Source of the DNA: Escherichia coli
GTDB taxonomy: Bacteria > Pseudomonadota > Gammaproteobacteria > Enterobacterales > Enterobacteriaceae
Direction: 5' to 3' (one strand)
NCBI RefSeq assembly: GCF_029227855.1
Contig: NZ_CP074356.1
Length of the DNA: 64,000 nucleotides
Shown here: positions 41,801 to 52,001 of the stretch, piece after piece
How positions within the stretch are numbered: position 1 is the first letter of the stretch
Layout of the letters: the number at the start of each line of letters is the position of its first letter
Notes under the pieces: generated by a model
Databases searched by the model: none
Seen by the model: the letters and a program-made list of their open reading frames with translations, nothing else
Told to the model about the DNA's origin: nothing
Position numbers and translations under genes: made by a program

Positions 41801-42043
41801 TCAGAAGTGACCGTCAAGGCGGTCACCGAACTCGATAATAAAGCGACTCATCCCTATCCGCCAGTCCTGAAGTGGCATCGTCCATTTTTGCGACGCTGAC
41901 TGGAAAGCCAGCCACACCACTTTTTTCACCGACTCATCTGTCGGGAACACTTTCCGTTTCTTTATCGCATGTGTGATGATGCTATTCAGCGATTCGATTG
42001 CGTTAGTGGTGTAGATAACCTTGCGGATCGCCTCCGGGTACAC
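41801..42043 (-). pseudogene. C-terminal fragment of an IS256-family (Mutator-type) transposase
   Basis: ORF track 80 aa ...YTTNAIESLNSIITHAIKKRKVFPTDESVKKVVWLAFQSASQKWTMPLQDWR... matches the conserved C-terminus of IS256-family transposases; the N-terminal ~300 aa are absent. Confidence 0.6.
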
Positions 42044-42120
42044 GAAGAATGTGGCAACATTCGGCCAGTTTGCCCGCCAGCTGCGACTTATCTGCGGGTA
42101 CCGTGCATCCCATTCCTTCC

Positions 42121-42143
42121 CAGGGAAAGATTACGAAAGCCCG
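42121..42143. repeat. 23-bp direct repeat, right copy
   Basis: cagggaaagattacgaaagcccg. Confidence 0.6.
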
Positions 42144-43263
42144 CTCCCCGCAAGGACTGACGCCAGATAGTTTCTGTCCATGGCTGCTTTTCGCATCTTA
42201 CGTCTTAACCCTGCCTTGAATACCTTATCATTCGTCAAAATATTAATAGCGATGTGCCGTATCCCTGAAAATAATTCTGCTGCATTTCCTCTTCTTATTT
42301 TGCAGTCGTCTTCATTCATTACCACGTCCAGACGCCAGTGCAGCTTATTCTCCACGTGCCAGTGGTTTCGGATTGCTGTGGCGAACTTCTCTGCGGTTAA
42401 ATCAGCAGAACTAATATAATATCTGACCGCCATTTCTGGCTCTTTCTTTTGTTCTGCTATTATTGACCGAAAGGAGACTGCCACGCATAATTTCTTCAGA
42501 CCTTTCCATTCAAACGTGAAATCAATAAGTTCATCAGGGACATCGCAAACAATGTGAAGACGGATTTCTTCTCTGCCGTGACTCTTTTCACTCATTGCGT
42601 AACTGTCATGCTCTGGATTATTTAATTCTTTCAGCGGAAATTCTCGAAGGCTTTATTTAGCCGCCCCTGGTTTCCTTTTACAGCGAATAAATAATCACCT
42701 CCCTGTTTTTGTATCTTCTCTGCAATATCTTTCTGGCAACCCATCGCATCAGTTGTGATGATTTTTCCTTTAATATCCAGCATGTTAAGAAGTTCTGGGA
42801 TAGCTGTAATTTCATTGGATTTCTCATCCGTCCTGATCTGTCCGATGACCAGACTGTGCATTGTTGAGAACGCACTAATGACATGAATCGCTCCCTTGCG
42901 GCGACTCTTGTCATAAGAATGCCGGAGTGTTTTTCCATCAATTGCGATGACGTCTTTATCATCTGAAGTATGGCAATCTCGCATCCAGTTAATAAAGCAC
43001 TCGTGAAATTTTGCAGGACTGATACAGGATACAACTCTGGCGATGGTATCGTGAACAGGAATACCATTTTAAAAATCACCGTATTGTTTTAAAAAATCGA
43101 GATGTGTTTCCCCAAAATCCTCTATATCTTCCCAACCTTCCGCACCCGAAATAACAGCACAAATAGTCAACAGTAGAATATCCGATAATTTATGTTCCAC
43201 TTTCCAGGCTTGTCTGTAATCGGGGATAATAGAAATATGCCCCATCAATTTTTTAAGTTCTAT
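42131..43263 (-). mobile_element. ISAs1-family (H-repeat) transposase gene, inactivated
   Basis: Track ORFs 42631-42984 and 42131-42595 are consecutive parts of an ISAs1/H-rpt transposase in different frames; hand translation of 43263-42985 gives the N-terminus with ATA in place of the first ATG (an in-frame Met codon remains at 43245-43243), and an in-frame TAA at 43071-43069. Confidence 0.8.
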
Positions 43264-43483: not shown

Positions 43484-43861
43484 TCACTCCTGACCAAAAT
43501 CTTTCCACACTAATGCATGAGACTTTGATTTATCACCCAAAAATTTACTTACATCTTTCCAAAGTAAAGAATTGCTATCGGTCGCAGTGACTATTGCCTC
43601 TATAAGCCCTGTAGCTACAACTGTGGCCAATTCATCATCAATCGAGACCATACCATCTTCGACATGTTTAAATATTTTTTCTCTTTCAATATCACCCATT
43701 TCATAAAAATTTTTTACAATCGTTTTTCCAATCTGAGAGAACAACATAACCACCGGTGGAGTTTCTGGATGCCAGTATTCATTAGCTAATGAGACTGTCT
43801 CAGACAAAACAGTGGAAAACGATGCCATTTTTTCTATATAATTAGCAATATATTGGTTCAT
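43484..43861 (-). CDS. putative immunity protein for the Rhs C-terminal toxin, 125 aa
   Basis: ORF track; small AT-rich ORF whose ATG overlaps the rhs stop codon; classic effector-immunity arrangement; family unknown. Confidence 0.5.
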   Translation of the reverse strand: MNQYIANYIEKMASFSTVLSETVSLANEYWHPETPPVVMLFSQIGKTIVKNFYEMGDIEREKIFKHVEDGMVSIDDELATVVATGLIEAIVTATDSNSLLWKDVSKFLGDKSKSHALVWKDFGQE

Positions 43862-46800
43862 TACTTGCCTCCCAAAGCATTCTGTAAATCCTGAAGAACG
43901 TTTTCTGCTGCTGCTCGATCCCCTGGAGATGCTGTTGGATTCTTATCCAACCAATCCTGTAAAGCCCTTGTATAATCCTGTGCTTTCAATACATGTCCTC
44001 TACCACCAACTTTTTCACCTGTGGCCAATTCATAACGAACAGCATCTGCTGTGCTTCCACTTCCTACTTTTGCATTTGGCCGATAAAGATCGTCTATAAT
44101 ATTTTTCAAATTTGAATCTGTAACGTCAGGTTTTCCCATCTTCTGTCGCAATTCATCTTTATACCGTTCATGCTGCATACGATCTCTTGCGCTATTCTCA
44201 TCTTCTGGTCCCCATCCTCCCGGGCTTCCCGTACTGCCACCACCCAGGCAGTTCTTCTCTTCCTCCGTCAAATCCTTCCCGACATTTGGATTCTCTTTTG
44301 ATGAATCATCATTTCCAAACACGCTGGAAAAAGCACCATAGGGATCTCGCCAGAATTCCATTTGACTTTGTGCATTTAATAATTCGGCTTCACCCTGCAT
44401 CTCCATACTTTTCTCAATCGCGTCCCCAACAGCCTCGCGATTGTTGTATATTATTATACCACCACCAATAACCACCGTACCGACTGCCGCACCGACTAAC
44501 ATCCCCGGAGGGCCTCCTACCGAACCGATCTCTGTACCTACTTCAGAACCAGTTCCCATGGCAGTTAATGCTCCTGCGCCCAACGCCGCACTTAATCCCA
44601 GCGGATCCAGCCGTTGCACCGGGTTCAGTGGATACGCATACAGGTTCCATCCCCCCTTCAGCCCAATCGGATCCTGGGTGATATACCTCCCCTGTAGCGG
44701 GTCATAGTACCGGTGACGGTTGTAGTACAGCCCCGACTCCTCATCATACTGCTGCCCCGGCAGACGGAGTGACTGTTGAAGGTGCTGCGTGCTTTCCTCT
44801 CCCAGCAGGTTTCCCCACTCGTCATACTCCCCGCGCCACGCCGTTTCCCCTTCCGGGCTGATAAGCGCCTGCGGCAGCCCACGGTGGTCACAGTGGTAAA
44901 GATGAAGTTTCCTCTCCGGGATGTATTCCGCCTCCAGTTGCGCCGCCATCTGTTCCGCCGTCAACCCACACTGTGCAAGCCACTGCTGGCTTTCTTCACT
45001 CACGCTGCCCTGCCGCAGTTCCCGCTCCAGCCTCCCCAGCATCACCGCCAGCTCCGCCGGTAGCGTCACACCCGTGTCCTCCTGCAACACCTCCGCCAGG
45101 CTACGGTGCCGCGCCTTCGCCTGTTCGCCATTCTCTGTTTCGATTCTCAGGAGCGGCGTGAAGCTCCCCGGCTGGTATACCGTCTGGATACGCGTGGTGT
45201 CGGTCTGTACCGTCGTCAGCCTGTCGCCGTCCCACCCGTACCAGGTCACCTCCGGTTTACGCGACAGCGACATCCACCCCGTCAGGTCACGCTCCCGCCG
45301 CCACACCCGTTTTCCCGTCCGGCGGCCCAGCGGGTCATAGAGGTAGCGGCTCTCCACCTGTGGCTCGCCGTGCTGTATCCGCGTGTAGAACACCAGGCGG
45401 TGCTGGCTGTCGTAATGGTAGTGGTGCGTCCGCTCGTCGTGCATCCGTATCACCCCTTCCGGGATACGGTCCGTCTTCTCCGCCAGCCTGCCGTATTCAT
45501 CGTAGCGGTAGACATAGTGCGCATCTTCCGTGATGCGGTTATCCGGCCACGCCGTGAGGGTGCTGTCCGGGTGCAGTTCCGGGTCCGGCAGCCGGTTTCC
45601 TGCCGGGTCCGTCGCATACGGGATATCAATGTCCAGGTTCGCTGCCGTGGTGTGGACGCCCGTCAGCCTTCCCGTGTCGCTGTAACGGTACTCCCGGCTC
45701 TCCTGCGGGCCGCTGATGCGAATTAGCTGTCCGTTGTCGTTCCAGTCGTAGTCACGGTCAAGCTGCGGAAGGTTCAGGTGCCTGCTCCGGAGCTGGCCGC
45801 TGGTATTCCAGGCGGTGGCAAGCTCATATGCCTCCCCGCCGAAGCTGCGGGCCGTCTCACGGTGCAGCCGGTCCCGCGTGTACTCGACCAGTGGCGTACC
45901 ACCCAGCTTCATTCCCGCAAGATAACCGCTGCCATACGTCAGCCACTCCACCGGCGGCAGACCGTCCAGCTCCTGACGGGTCGCCAGCCCCTGTTCGCTG
46001 TACGCGTGCTTCGTCTCATGCTCCCACAGCATCTCCCCCGTCTCCGGGTTCTCCACCGTCTGCCGTTCGCCCGTCAGGCGGCCTTTATCGTCGTGGCCGT
46101 AGTGGACCGCCACACGGTGGCCTTCGCTGATATGGCTGATTTCTGTCAGCCAGCCGTGCTCATCATACTGCCACTGCTCCGCCGGGTCGCCGTTCACCGT
46201 CCGGTGCGTGATGCGGTCCGACGCATCGTAATGCCAGAGGGTGATAAGTCCCTCGTCTTCACTGTGGACAAGCTGCCCTGTGGCGCTGTACCGGTAACGC
46301 TGCGTCCTGCCGTCAAAGCCGCGCTGCTCCGTCAGCCTGTCCACCGGGTCATACCGGAACGTGGACTGGCTGCCGTTCTCGTTGGTCAGCACGGTGATGC
46401 GCCCGGCAGCGTCATACCCCATGCTGCGCGTCAGACCGCCTTCCGTCACACTCACCGGACGCCCGCGTTTATCATATTCGATGGTGCTGCGTTTACCGTC
46501 CGGTGATATCGTTGCTGTCAGGTCGCCTGCGGCGCTGTACTCATAACGGGTTTCACGCCCCTGCGCATCCTTCTGACTGACCAGTTGGCCTCGCGGGTTA
46601 TAACTGCTGTAAGTGCTGATGCCTTCCTCCCGGTGAACGGCGATTTGTTGACCGTACCGGTCATACTCATACCGCGTCATGTACCCCGAGCAGTCCGTGA
46701 AGGCCCGAAGCTGACCGTACCGGTTTCGCGTTATTCTCCGCGTCACCCCGATTCCGTCTTCCACCGCGCCGGGCAGGCTACTGCGGGGGGAGTCATAAAA

Positions 46801-48360
46801 CCAGCGCGTAATGTTACCGTTGCGCGAGATCTCTTCTGCCAGTCGGCCCTGACGGTCATATTTCCGGCTGCTGCGTAAACCATCCGGATATGTCACTGAA
46901 GTCAGTTGCAACTGGCTGTTGTAACCATACCGTACCGTCCTGCCGTCCGGCAGTATCACTGAAGTCAGCTTTCCAGACGCCATATGCAGCCGGTACTCCG
47001 TCCGCCGTCCTGCCGCATCCGTCTGCGCCTTCAGCCTCCCCGCCTCATCATACTCGCTGCGGGTGATGCTCCCGTCGGCATGCTCCTTCTTCACCACACG
47101 CTTCAGGCCACCCCCGCCTTCCGTGTACAGCACCTCCCGCCGGTTCAGGCTGTCCGTGATGGTCACACGGTCCTGCCCGTACTCAAAGCGGTAGTCCAGC
47201 CCCTCCGGGTTGACCTGCTCCGTCACCCGCCCGGTATCATCATACCGGTAGCGGCTCTCCGGCCTCCCTGCATAATGGTGCGCCACCATCCGCCCGGCGT
47301 GCTCCGCATCATAAGTAAACCCGCGCACCTGCGTCCCGCTGCGGTCATACACCGCCCGCAGTTCTCCGCTGGCCGTGTACGTATAGCGCGCCAGCGGCGC
47401 AGTCGGCTGTTCATCCGGGTATGCCGGGTCGTGTGTCAGCCACACCGCCTCCAGCCGGATACCGTTATCGGCACCGTATTCTGTACCGGCGGGCAGCGTA
47501 TCGGGGAAAACCTGAGAAGAGGAAACAGAACGGGGACCGGCTGGAGAAGATAAAGAAGAGGCGCGCTGTTTACGGAAGGCTTCCGCCCGCTGCGCCTGCG
47601 TGCTCAGCGCCAGGTGAAAACAGCGGCCCGCGCCGTCCGTCACCCCCGTCACCGCACCCGCCACGTCACCCTCTGCCGCCCGGTGGAAGGCCAGCGTCCG
47701 CCCGAAGCCGTCCACCACGCCCGTCAGCACCCGGTATGCGGGCGGCTCCGGCGGCAGCACCTCGTCCGCCCCCGGCACCCGCTCCGGCCAGCCGAGCACC
47801 AGCCACTGCCCGGTTGTGCTGGCAGCCATCATATAGATGTGTGGACTCAGACGGACCGCTTCCGGCAACGCCCGCCAGAGCCGCGCAAGCGGGTGGCCTT
47901 TGTGCTGTTTCAGCACCCCGCACCGCGCCAGCCAGAACGACTCGCTGCGGCTGTAGCTTATCTCGCCGGGAAACAGGGGTTCAAAGTGAATGCTCCTGCC
48001 GCCGCTGTCGTTGAGTATCAGGCCTTCATCGCGTATCTGTAAGCGGATATCGAAGGGGGCTTTCCAGCCGGGACCAAACACCCCCACCGGCGCGGGCGTC
48101 CTGGTCCGGTAGCTGCTGTAGGCGCGGAAAAGAACAAACGGCAGCGGGCCGGACAGTGCCAGGTCGGTTTCAGCAGGCAGCACCTTCGCTCCCAGCAGCG
48201 GGTTTACCGGATTGCCATATTTCGGCGTGGCTTCCCCTGTGGGACACACCGAGCAGGCCACACCGGTTGGCGCACCTATCAGCACCCCTGCTGAACCCTG
48301 CACAATATCCAGTCCCTTGCGGGTCATGTCACCCTGCCGCGCCGCCGGTTTTCCACCCAT
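43861..48360 (-). CDS. rhs: PAAR-domain Rhs (YD-repeat) polymorphic toxin, 1499 aa, with variable C-terminal toxin domain
   Basis: ORF track; N-terminal PAAR motif ([11 protein letters not shown]...), long YD-repeat core, DPLGL core-end motif at 44593-44607 followed by a ~243-aa C-terminal domain of lower GC. Confidence 0.9.
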
Positions 48361-48435: not shown

Positions 48436-50577
48436 TCAAAATTGCCGCATATCCGGCATTCCGGGGGGTAAATCTTTCGGCACAGGCGCATCCGGTACAG
48501 GTTGTGTGGCACCACAGTTCCAGTTAATCACCGGCGCATCACCGTTCACATCCGACTCTCCTTCCAGATGAATGTGCGTACCATTGAGAAATATGCTTCC
48601 GTCCTTCGTCAGCACCAACCTTGCCTTACCGCAGCAGAGTTCCAGATGCTCACCGGCAGAATAAACTGCTGTTTGTCCGGTGTTTTCCTTCATCGTCTTG
48701 CCCACCGAGAAGGTGACGTTATTCCCTACATTGACGCTGTAGCCCATTCCCACCATCAGTGATTTATGCAGCCCTACCTGTGAGGACTGCAACAACGCCA
48801 CCGAGGTATTCATGATGCCGCCTACCGTCGTCTGGTAAGCCACGCCCACCGTCAGCGCACGAATGATCCCCACCTTTTCAACCTGGTTTGAACCCACTTT
48901 GACAATCTGGTTGCTGCCTACCGTTTCCACCTGGTTGACACCAACCGTCTGTATCTGATTAACGCCAATGTTCTGGATCTGGTTATTGGTAACGGTGATC
49001 GCCTGGTTGTTACCTATTTTTTCGGCATGGTTGTTTATCACATCAGTGGTACGGTTATTCAGCACCTCGGTGTTCATGTTCTTCTGCGCGTGGATGTAGA
49101 CCTGTTCTTTCCCTGTCGCATCGTCAAACTTCAGTTCATTAAACCCGCTGCCCTTATAGGTTTTTGAACGAATGGTCATCTGCGTCTTTGTTCCCGGCAG
49201 GCTGCCGGGGGTGCGGTTTTCCTGGTGGTAGGTGCGCCCCATAATAATCGGCTGGTCCGGATCGCCGTTGAGGAAGTCCACAATGACTTCCTGACCCACA
49301 CGCGGTATCGCCAGGTTGCCAAAGCCGGTGCCTGCCCACGCCTGTGCCACACGGATCCAGCATGAACTGTCCTGGTTTGACGGGTTATAGCGGTCCCAGT
49401 TAAATTTCACCCGCACGCGGCCATGTTCATCACAGAAGATTTCTTCTCCTGCCGGTCCCGTCACGACGGCGCTCTGCGGGCCGTCCACCAGCGGTTTCAG
49501 CAACGGCTGTGGCCGCCATGTTCTGTCTGCCGGTATTACCGCAAAGTGGTTATTCAGCGTGGTACCTGAACCCCTGCGTCCCGGCACCGCCTGCGGCTGC
49601 TCGCCGTGCAGTTCACTTGCCACCACCTGCCATTCCCGGTTCAGGTTCGCCTGCGGATGCCCCGTCAGCGCAATTCGCCGTCCCGGCCATATCTCCGGCG
49701 AACGGCTTGTTCCGCGCGCCACTTCTGCGTTGTTTCGCCAGCCATCCATCTGCCAGCAGGCAAAGTTCTGCCCGTGGGCACCCTTGAAACGTCCGGGGTA
49801 GTCATACACTTCATACTGTGTGCGCTGGTAATCCTGGTGCTGGCCTTCCTGATCAAAACGCCCTGCCCAGCCGGGTCGTTTAAAGGTGTAGTCTTTGGTC
49901 ACCACGGAAGATGGGCGGATTTGTGCGCTGTAGAGGAACTGGCTGATGCATAGGGTGCTCACCTCGGTACGGGTGTTCGGATTCCAGGGGATCTCAAAGG
50001 ACTCCGGCAGATAACGCACGGTGTCGCACAGGACCAGGCTCTGGTCGGTACTTTTTTGCGCGTGCTCCTCATAAAAGAAGATGCCTTCCTCCGCCGCCAT
50101 CCGGCACAGGAAATCGTAATCGGTTTCGCCGTACTGGACACAAAACTCACGGGAAGGATGCGGCTCGCTGAACAGCGGACTCCACTCGGTCACCCCGTTT
50201 TCTTTCAGGATCGTCGCGAGTATGCTTTCGATGTCCTCATTCTGGAAGATACGGAAGTTCTGGCGCAGCCCTGTGCGCCACAGCGGTGGGCACACCTTCA
50301 TGCTGTACAGCATCTGGTTTTTGTCGTTCTCCCCCAGTTCAAACCAGGTCACCACACCTTTCACCCGGCGCTGTACGTCATCGCCCTGCCATACCGTCAG
50401 GTAGGCCATTTTGTCCAGCACCTGCGCAAATTCAAGGGAGAGAAACTGCTGGCTGACCAGAGAGAGATCGAGGGAAAAGAGCGAAGAGAGTGACTGGTTC
50501 AGATGAAAGGAGACCACCGCAAACGCGTCCGGTGGCAGGCCGTCCACTTCCAGCGTGAAACGTAATCCGGTTGACAT
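48436..50577 (-). CDS. vgrG: T6SS spike protein VgrG (TssI)
   Basis: ORF track, 713 aa; gp27/gp5-like sequence and beta-helix repeats (…VGSNQIVKVGSNQVEKVG…). Confidence 0.9.
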   Translation of the reverse strand: MSTGLRFTLEVDGLPPDAFAVVSFHLNQSLSSLFSLDLSLVSQQFLSLEFAQVLDKMAYLTVWQGDDVQRRVKGVVTWFELGENDKNQMLYSMKVCPPLWRTGLRQNFRIFQNEDIESILATILKENGVTEWSPLFSEPHPSREFCVQYGETDYDFLCRMAAEEGIFFYEEHAQKSTDQSLVLCDTVRYLPESFEIPWNPNTRTEVSTLCISQFLYSAQIRPSSVVTKDYTFKRPGWAGRFDQEGQHQDYQRTQYEVYDYPGRFKGAHGQNFACWQMDGWRNNAEVARGTSRSPEIWPGRRIALTGHPQANLNREWQVVASELHGEQPQAVPGRRGSGTTLNNHFAVIPADRTWRPQPLLKPLVDGPQSAVVTGPAGEEIFCDEHGRVRVKFNWDRYNPSNQDSSCWIRVAQAWAGTGFGNLAIPRVGQEVIVDFLNGDPDQPIIMGRTYHQENRTPGSLPGTKTQMTIRSKTYKGSGFNELKFDDATGKEQVYIHAQKNMNTEVLNNRTTDVINNHAEKIGNNQAITVTNNQIQNIGVNQIQTVGVNQVETVGSNQIVKVGSNQVEKVGIIRALTVGVAYQTTVGGIMNTSVALLQSSQVGLHKSLMVGMGYSVNVGNNVTFSVGKTMKENTGQTAVYSAGEHLELCCGKARLVLTKDGSIFLNGTHIHLEGESDVNGDAPVINWNCGATQPVPDAPVPKDLPPGMPDMRQF

Positions 50578-50786: not shown

Positions 50787-51305
50787 TTATGCTTCCAGCG
50801 GTGCGCGCCAGTCGTCGGCACCGGAGGTGCCAGACTTGACGTGTTCCCACTCTATTTTGCGGTAGGCCAGTGAAACTTCGAGCAACTGGGTGAACTCGCG
50901 TTTCGCCGGATCCTGGCAATGCGGCATATGCAGTTTCATATCGACAATCGTCGAATCGGTCAGGCGGGTGGTGAAATAATGCTCCTGTTTGCCTTCCACA
51001 GAGGTACGCCACCAGTGAAGTTCAGTGGTTGGCAGCATTTCGCCGGAGGCCAGTGCGTTGTACATCAGCGGAACAGCTTTGTTCAGCGCCACGGTAAAAA
51101 TGAACGGCTTGTGAGCACGCTGACCCGCAGGCTGGCCGGACTGAGGATCGGTCGGGACAGTAACGTTATGCAGGAATTCCTGCACCAGCATCTCGTCTTC
51201 GTGCCCCTGCACATAGATGTTGCCGACAGAATCAGCGGTAAATGCACCTGCAGTAATATTTCCCTGGGTCTGACCAGTGATGGAGATATAACACGGTGTT
51301 GGCAT
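50787..51305 (-). CDS. hcp: T6SS tube protein Hcp (TssD)
   Basis: ORF track, 172 aa, MPTPCYISITGQTQGNITAGAF... Confidence 0.9.
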   Translation of the reverse strand: MPTPCYISITGQTQGNITAGAFTADSVGNIYVQGHEDEMLVQEFLHNVTVPTDPQSGQPAGQRAHKPFIFTVALNKAVPLMYNALASGEMLPTTELHWWRTSVEGKQEHYFTTRLTDSTIVDMKLHMPHCQDPAKREFTQLLEVSLAYRKIEWEHVKSGTSGADDWRAPLEA

Positions 51306-52001
51306 TTGTAAACTCCTTGTTAACGTGGTTAATTACTACTTACAATGACCTGCCGTTAATCCCAGACAGGCAGATGCAGCTCACTTCACGGAACCGCATC
51401 ATTTTTCAGTATTTTTTACATACAAACCGAGCTAGAATTTACGGTTGTCGTAAAAACTATTTTTAAAATCATTAAATCTCTTATTCAGCAATAAGTTAAT
51501 AATATATATCTGGATAACCACACCCAACTATTCAAAGTCCGTATTGCCTCCATAAAATGGCCAAAGCTGAATCATGAATAAATATTGTATTTATCCTTTC
51601 TGAATTATCATTTTGATAATTTTTGAGATATTCCTTAAAAATACCCACTTAATCAATCACAAAACAAATATATAAACAAGCAATCATCAGATTAGCTTAT
51701 GTTTAATGAAATTATTTTATAATTCAATAAGTTACACAAAGTCTCTGTATTTAAATTATTGCCATAATACACCTGACGCGAATTGCACAGGTTCACACAA
51801 TCTATTTAACGCTTGCAGAATACCCCTCTTTACGATCGATAAAAAGTCCTTTTCTTATTTATTTTGAAGCGTAGAATGCGGGGTGATGAAGGAGTGGTGA
51901 TTTTATTTTCACCGCCATTATGGCGGCATTGCCGATATTTTTTTGCGGTACAAATATGCCGTGTTCATGGCCTGTACGAGATAACATGACGGATCACTTT
52001 T
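51306..52001. promoter_or_regulatory. AT-rich divergent control region between hcp and tssB
   Basis: About 700 bp, strongly AT-rich, between divergently transcribed hcp and tssB; GATC sites at 51835 and 51991; specific promoter elements not resolved. Confidence 0.4.

Follow-up and report, generated by a model that had tools for sequence, protein, structure and literature searches.

What does an rhs gene of Escherichia coli carry beyond the end of its conserved core, and what is the role of the small gene that overlaps its stop codon? The question is raised by a stretch of E. coli DNA of 64,000 nucleotides (assembly GCF_029227855.1, contig NZ_CP074356.1; the window in what follows), which is the type VI secretion system 1 (T6SS-1) locus with hcp, vgrG and PAAR/rhs in this order on the minus strand. 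The best explanation of the region is that it forms the cargo end of a T6SS-1 PAAR-Rhs effector together with the cognate immunity gene; this explanation, including the mechanism proposed below, is considered probable.

The Rhs tail and its partner gene

The rhs gene (43861-48360, minus strand) is identified by its open reading frame (ORF), NCBIfam models and the RefSeq annotation as encoding a PAAR-Rhs effector of 1499 amino acids with a PAAR motif, a YD-repeat core and a polymorphic C-terminal tail. The literal 'PAAR' motif lies at residues 5-8. The NCBIfam model RHS_core (NF041261) covers residues 1-1256 with 2498.8 bits (cut-off 2000), YD_repeat_2x matches at E=1.5e-48, and Rhs_assc_core (TIGR03696) spans residues 1179-1256, stopping like RHS_core exactly at residue 1256. 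The DPLGL motif that closes the core (residues 1252-1256; 44593-44607, minus strand) had been located in a preliminary description of the window and was confirmed to the base by codon reading; it is the presumed site of autoproteolytic release. Cleavage at the DPxGL motif is established for Rhs/TcC proteins. The tail behind it, estimated earlier at about 243 amino acids with a glycine-rich hydrophobic start, is 243 amino acids long (residues 1257-1499), has 28% glycine in its first 50 residues and a hydrophobic segment at residues 1286-1304, and ends [37 protein letters not shown], as had been quoted. The Rhs core has a G+C fraction of 0.60-0.65, which drops to 0.42-0.48 over the tail and to 0.33-0.36 over the following ORF. 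The composition shift at DPLGL, read in the preliminary description as the sign of a swapped cassette, is therefore present, and the polymorphic tail is indeed exchanged between E. coli genomes. The protein shows the features of PAAR-Rhs T6SS effectors: a PAAR motif with a YD core, a core ended by DPxGL and followed by a variable tail, and linkage to vgrG, hcp and the T6SS. Within the tail, family searches, conservation and an AlphaFold2 model delimit a putative all-alpha toxin domain of about 112 amino acids at the C-terminus (residues 1388-1499; 43864-44199, minus strand).

The partner gene (43484-43861, minus strand) encodes a protein of 125 amino acids, for which Pfam, the gene neighbourhood and an AlphaFold2 model point to an acidic, soluble, all-alpha immunity protein of the DUF7674 family. 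It is translationally coupled to rhs; its start codon shares its A with the end of the rhs stop codon (TAATG), and a GGAGG sequence lies six bases upstream. An AT-rich ORF of this length overlapping the rhs stop codon had been described before. The protein matches Pfam DUF7674 (PF24722) weakly (E=5.7e-4) and has few close relatives outside E. coli. Its isoelectric point (pI) is 4.8, and it is without a transmembrane segment (maximum hydropathy 1.34). The AlphaFold2 model contains seven helices (pLDDT 94.4), and comparison with the PDB gave only spurious matches to designed repeats. The Pfam entry for DUF7674 gives no function, and no papers were found in a literature search by accession and for DUF7674.

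The toxin domain was located in nine foreign loci, eight of which were informative (an enterobacterial orphan array, Rhs loci, a vgrG-linked locus, a CdiB/CdiA locus and an actinobacterium); the ninth contig ended before the downstream gene. In all eight, the gene directly downstream of the toxin encodes a DUF7674-type homologue of the 125-residue protein, 120-140 amino acids in length. DUF7674 is matched by seven of these proteins (at E≤1e-5 in the loci L006, L008 and L009), the eighth is plainly homologous on alignment, and all partners align as one family with a median pI of 4.7. The downstream gene overlaps the last base of the toxin gene in L004, L005, L009 and L015, and the CdiA instance of the toxin has CdiB encoded directly upstream. 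The immunity role of DUF7674 is assigned because of this pairing in all eight informative loci; judged by gene neighbourhood, DUF7674 is the cognate immunity family of the toxin domain. Polymorphic toxins (Zhang et al. 2012) are also marked by a conserved small neighbour gene that varies along with the toxin. The entire cassette is found at 99% identity or more in 267 of 5,426 complete E. coli genomes, and both proteins are conserved in the same gene order in distant taxa, so the arrangement is more than a product of chance. The two genes are very probably a genuine effector-immunity pair, as was supposed in the preliminary description on the grounds of composition; the complete T6SS-1 cluster with its hcp-vgrG-PAAR/rhs order and the conserved partner gene both support that supposition.

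Two of the foreign loci have features of their own. L004 (3029-8573) is an array of orphan modules with Imm42 genes, this toxin followed by DUF7674, and a Tox-HNH-EHHH module, and it carries SymE-toxin genes on the opposite strand. L008 (1554-3789) contains tandem DUF7674 genes, one directly after another upstream gene and the second after the ORF of this toxin.

The toxin domain and the architecture of the tail

Searches of Pfam, NCBIfam, PADLOC, PHROGs and the PDB sequences gave no match for the toxin domain. The preliminary description had placed the pair in an unrecognised family; this holds for the toxin domain and not for the immunity protein, which is a weak member of DUF7674. An initial search gave 96 relatives of the toxin domain with 48-100% identity. 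A profile search of 1.84 billion cluster representatives gave 2,244 proteins at E≤1e-3, of which 1,432 were at E≤1e-10; the family size of 2,244 refers to clusters at 50% identity. The domain is at the extreme C-terminus in all 150 of the 2,244 matches that were listed, in proteins of 121 to 2,634 amino acids. Among 85 full-length relatives, a Pfam scan detected PT-VENN, Fil_haemagg, RHS, WXG100, PT-TG and PAAR scaffolds but none of the known toxin domains; matches in the AlphaFold database (AFDB) add CpnT-like and Hint scaffolds. A C-terminal position on diverse trafficking scaffolds is a further mark of polymorphic toxins in the sense of Zhang et al. (2012). The proteobacterial hosts in the AFDB include Enterobacteriaceae, Vibrio, Neisseria, Xanthomonas, Acinetobacter, Rhizobium and Bdellovibrio, and further hosts are Streptomyces, Micromonospora, Paenibacillus and Planctomycetes. 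The toxin family is neither rare nor specific to E. coli and spans Proteobacteria, Actinobacteria, Firmicutes and Planctomycetes.

Over an alignment of 86 sequences, the residues Y1426, R1427, G1433-S-G-S-T1437, R1442, E1444, H1456, K1459, W1470, D1481, E1486, N1487 and D1491 are conserved at 92-100%, and all family-invariant residues are present in the toxin domain of the window. Identity between E. coli, actinobacterial and deltaproteobacterial members is 50-70% over about 110 amino acids, with a mean column identity of 56%. Such cross-phylum identity is high for polymorphic toxins. The cognate immunity proteins, by comparison, go down to 15-35% identity; by these figures, constraint is far stronger on the toxin than on its inhibitor. 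The AlphaFold2 model of the toxin domain consists of five helices (pLDDT 90.5, pTM 0.83), in which helix 3 has its N-terminus capped by the GSGS loop and helix 4 has H1456 at its start. Structure prediction, proposed earlier as a check, thus gave confident all-alpha models for both proteins, the toxin being without a solved relative in fold: a Foldseek search with its model had a best E of 1.6. Met1408 (44137-44139) opens the conserved core (MxKP) and is found in 86 of 86 family members. Many database entries (P0001, P0022, P0027 and others) are proteins of 92 amino acids that start at Met1408 and are named 'type IV secretion protein Rhs'. The invariance of this methionine may be structural or may be an annotation effect of broken rhs genes.

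The tail consists of a hydrophobic module, a linker and the toxin. Only its last approximately 110 amino acids are toxin, and the first approximately 100 are separable. The earlier view of the whole tail as toxin accordingly stands for the C-terminal part and has to be given up for the hydrophobic module and for residues 1356-1389, a linker common to CdiA C-terminal regions (CdiA-CTs). The N-terminal sub-domain (residues 1257-1355; 44296-44592, minus strand) is glycine-rich and hydrophobic and continues as a helical stretch; the shuffling of modules described below makes it a candidate membrane-translocation ('entry') module. It includes a predicted transmembrane glycine-zipper helix, [19 protein letters not shown] (residues 1286-1304; 44449-44505, minus strand), with GxxxGxxxG motifs and a 19-residue Kyte-Doolittle mean of 2.16. 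The inter-domain linker, [34 protein letters not shown] (residues 1356-1389; 44194-44295, minus strand), is recognised as a recombination junction by module switches and by its match to the linker of CdiA-CT UPEC536. In a PDB sequence search this match was to 5j5v, 5j43 and 8zyc at E ~6e-6, and the pattern common to both is NPN[IV]GKDLT..EK..LGG.GSG. In other enterobacteria, Ntox28 toxins as well as this toxin come after the same linker.

The N-terminal sub-domain of this tail (sub-domain A) is full-length in 268 E. coli genomes, and DNA 97% identical to it occurs in about 600 further E. coli genomes. SE11, the one of these that was inspected, has an orphan Rhs tail (L011, 3009-3590) in which sub-domain A and the linker (97% at the nucleotide level) are joined to a different, unannotated C-terminal domain of about 85 amino acids. 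An in-frame TAG breaks that domain, and a DUF3969 gene comes after it; the domain had no Pfam or PDB match, and SE11 therefore does not indicate what type of cargo sub-domain A goes with. Toxin and immunity DNA is present in 402 of the 5,426 complete E. coli genomes, and many of these carriers come from human hosts. About 134 of the 402 are without a full-length sub-domain A; in E308, the one inspected, the toxin follows a different hydrophobic sub-domain (sub-domain B). The switches in SE11 and E308 both fall at the linker. The N-terminal sub-domain is thus exchangeable independently of the toxin domain, as in two-part regions of the CdiA-CT type. E308 is also the one genome of 95-99% identity that was inspected (L012, 1998-4217). 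Its rhs gene is without the N-terminus and abuts a truncated tagO beside tssA, and its T6SS cluster is partly deleted; the toxin end and an intact immunity gene are kept.

Because the hydrophobic sub-domain is exchangeable, is placed like the cytoplasm-entry domains of CdiA-CTs and is joined to the same linker, it is interpreted as a module for crossing the inner membrane. A two-part tail with a translocation module is rated somewhat above even. The translocation role rests on analogy and module shuffling only, and this counts against the proposed mechanism.

Mode of action and alternative explanations

It is established for Rhs proteins that the YD shell encapsulates the tail, that the protein cleaves itself at DPxGL and that it is mounted on VgrG via PAAR. 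By analogy, the YD-repeat shell of this effector would enclose the 243-residue tail, and self-cleavage at DPLG|L would free it. The hydrophobic module would then insert in the inner membrane of the target cell and the toxin domain would be carried into the cytoplasm. The domain is pictured as a small all-alpha enzyme whose active site would be made up of the GSGST loop, as an anion-binding loop at a helix N-terminus, and of R1442, E1444, H1456 and K1459. It would act on a phosphate-bearing substrate of the cytoplasm, most probably RNA or DNA. In sibling cells, the acidic, soluble DUF7674 protein of 125 amino acids would bind and block it.

The solubility of the immunity protein and the link that the CdiA protein P0117 makes between this toxin and an entry domain of the UPEC536 type make a cytoplasmic target likely. 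In P0117 the toxin lies behind an entry domain 63% identical to that of UPEC536, which is listed as FtsH-dependent and as delivering a tRNA nuclease (PMC11630599 Table 2). The preference for an enzyme, and for a nuclease in particular, is based on the invariant R, E, H, K and D residues, the Gly/Ser loop capping helix 3, and the combination of a basic toxin family (median pI 9.4) with an acidic immunity family. The Gly/Ser helix cap and the R/E/H/K set suggest that the domain binds a phosphate group and carries out its chemistry there. Among the possible activities a nuclease is favoured, as a tentative guess that falls short of even odds. Several observations weigh against the proposed mechanism. 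No database assigns a function to the toxin domain, the E. coli domain itself is near neutral (pI 7.0) and not basic, and the invariant D1481 and D1491 could equally well point to metal-dependent or non-nuclease chemistry.

The alternative that survives best is that the toxin is another kind of cytoplasm-acting enzyme, or a stoichiometric inhibitor, directed at a universally conserved target (e.g. by consumption of nucleotides or NAD, or by modifying or blocking a translation factor or the ribosome). Such a target would explain the unusually high conservation of the toxin domain between phyla, the GSGST loop at the helix N-terminus suits a nucleotide phosphate as well as a nucleic-acid backbone, and no nuclease family is detectable for the domain by sequence or fold. 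However, there is no positive evidence for any particular alternative activity, and the basic toxin with its acidic immunity protein and the CdiA fusions to an entry domain that carries a tRNA nuclease fit a nuclease at least equally. This alternative is regarded as possible, although doubtful. A more far-reaching proposal, considered rather unlikely, is that of a new toxin fold with a chemistry unseen in interbacterial toxins, in which the GSGST loop as an anion nest and the R, E, H, K and D residues would act on a universally conserved cytoplasmic molecule, with Rhs carriers using exchangeable transmembrane glycine-zipper modules as the T6SS counterparts of entry domains in contact-dependent inhibition (CDI). 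If true, the universal cytoplasmic target would explain the 50-70% identity from E. coli to Actinobacteria and Planctomycetes.

The toxin domain could also be a very divergent Ntox28 domain, that is, an all-alpha tRNA anticodon nuclease in which H1456 would be used like H178 of UPEC536 to cleave tRNA. For comparison, the CdiA-CT of UPEC 536 was taken from its genome and set directly against the tail. The PDB match to CdiA-CT UPEC536 (E ~6e-6) reaches the first helix of the toxin domain. The AlphaFold2 model loosely resembles the UPEC536 toxin as described (PMC9086364) in having two N-terminal helices, a small hairpin and two C-terminal helices, and in both a conserved histidine opens the helix after a GG turn (GGYWDH and GGRGH). 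An AFDB protein of 354 amino acids, A0A0X8D552, is 44% identical to the toxin domain and has the UniProt name 'Bacterial toxin 28 domain-containing protein'. This name is at odds with the family, as no scanned member matches Pfam Ntox28: the PF15605 hidden Markov model (HMM) matched none of 109 family members (24 and 85) at E≤0.1. In hhalign, family alignments of 24 or 86 sequences gave a probability of 0.4-0.8% against the Ntox28 alignment, which also counts against the mechanism proposed above. The motifs of Ntox28 are D, K[DE], [DN]HxxE and E (Zhang et al. 2012), with D155, W176, H178 and E181 in the active site. In the present family [DN]HxxE is replaced by an invariant HxxK (H1456, K1459), with no conserved Asp at the position equivalent to D155 and no Trp before the His. 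The domain is also without the C-terminal GxGI tail that binds CysK, and Foldseek with its model does not retrieve 5j43 or 5j5v. The PDB match named 'tRNA nuclease CdiA' was rejected as the identity of the toxin, its significant part being the linker and the start of the first toxin helix and not the toxin core. Membership in Ntox28 was rejected as unsupported by HMM, hhalign and motifs; the loosely similar helix-hairpin-helix order and the His after a GG turn remain, and a very distant relationship may exist. That the toxin works as a divergent Ntox28 domain is judged unlikely.

Very little weight is given to the idea that the glycine-zipper segment is itself the toxic principle, forming a pore or dissipating the proton gradient like Tse5 and the CDI ionophores, with the C-terminal domain as an accessory. 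The hydrophobic GxxxGxxxG segment at residues 1286-1304 is of transmembrane grade, and glycine zippers are the only element common to the CDI ionophore toxins, whose immunity proteins are small and very hydrophobic (PMC11630599). The hydrophobic membrane immunity protein that goes with the glycine-zipper ionophore class (CT-EC93 type, Tse5) is not what is encoded here; the immunity protein is soluble and acidic, unlike those of the ionophores. Its family tracks the C-terminal domain in Rhs, CdiA and actinobacterial contexts without the hydrophobic segment, and the toxin and immunity genes do not move with the hydrophobic sub-domain when it is exchanged. The pore-forming interpretation of the glycine-rich stretch was rejected on these grounds.

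Least probable of all, and scarcely credible, is that the cassette is an inactive remnant without function in competition, as a frameshifted ISAs1 element directly downstream, the truncated rhs and partly deleted T6SS cluster of E308 and the annotation of the toxin end elsewhere as a separate fragment of 92 amino acids might suggest; the rhs gene of the window is nevertheless an intact ORF for 1499 amino acids coupled to the immunity gene, with intact vgrG and hcp upstream and a full T6SS, the cassette is kept at 99% identity or more in the 267 genomes, and all family-invariant residues are present.

In the RefSeq annotation, a complete T6SS cluster (tssB, C, E, F, G and others) is followed by hcp, vgrG, an 'RHS element core protein' and a 'hypothetical protein', and beyond the latter by the frameshifted ISAs1 element and then yafV-ivy-fadE. 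The hcp/tssD gene (50787-51305, minus strand; 172 amino acids) matches TIGR03344 at E=1.7e-61, and vgrG (48436-50577, minus strand; 713 amino acids), which encodes the spike protein directly upstream of rhs, matches TIGR03361 at E=5e-188; both are so annotated in RefSeq. The chromosome of E. coli strain 7/2 matches the region at 100% identity, as do those of many more isolates. The transposase gene of the ISAs1 family (H-repeat; 42131-43263, minus strand) adjoins the 3' side of the immunity gene and is frameshifted, with an internal stop at about 43069; a second transposase fragment (41801-42112, minus strand) follows. ISAs1/H-repeat elements are the usual terminus of E. coli Rhs elements. The intergenic region between the divergent hcp and tssB (51306-52001) has a G+C fraction of 0.27-0.37, compared with about 0.55 in its flanks, and is presumably the regulatory region of the T6SS-1 operons.

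Relation to known systems

A polymorphic Rhs effector with its immunity protein is a thoroughly known kind of system. Among the Enterobacteriaceae, the PAAR-Rhs effector/immunity cassettes of the T6SS include Rhs-CT1 to CT10 of E. coli (Ma et al. 2017, as summarised in PMC6730261) and those of Salmonella and Serratia. The present locus resembles them in the order hcp-vgrG-PAAR/rhs, the YD core ending in DPxGL, the polymorphic AT-rich tail, the overlapping small immunity gene and the ISAs1/H-repeat element downstream. It differs in that its toxin domain does not belong to the annotated DNase, RNase, deaminase or peptidase domains and would join the 'unknown' clan. No entry of the toxin table of Zhang et al. 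(2012) came up in a motif search with GSGS, RxE and the like. The domain is an uncharacterised family among the named families and may coincide with an unnamed group of the STox or PT1-9 screens. It shares with the PT1-9 (Nachmias et al., bioRxiv 10.1101/2021.10.19.465003) and STox toxins (Nicastro et al. 2026, PMC12994826) the short C-terminal domain without a Pfam match, the many trafficking architectures and the conserved downstream immunity gene, which were the discovery criteria of those screens. The structures of PT1 and PT7 are reported as solved (bioRxiv 10.1101/2021.10.19.465003); identity with either was rejected, as the domain has no PDB match by sequence or fold.

The toxin family is large (2,244 clusters) and serves secretion systems of types V, VI and VII in several phyla, without annotation or structure. 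With its target defined, the interbacterial arsenal would gain a toxin class and DUF7674 a function. The shuffling of hydrophobic sub-domain, linker and toxin offers a tractable system for the way in which T6SS-delivered Rhs toxins cross the inner membrane, and the immunity gene that E308 retained after loss of the weapon would be worth a population-level look.

The other close comparison is with CdiA-CT UPEC536, the CysK-activated tRNA anticodon nuclease (Ntox28, PF15605; PDB 5J43/5J5V). Both have a two-part C-terminal region with a near-identical linker, a small all-alpha toxin and an all-alpha immunity protein, and some CdiA proteins put an entry domain of the UPEC536 type before the present toxin. 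The toxin of the window differs in an extra helix with a GSGST...R.E motif, and its entry module is a transmembrane glycine zipper, whereas that of UPEC536 is a helical entry domain.

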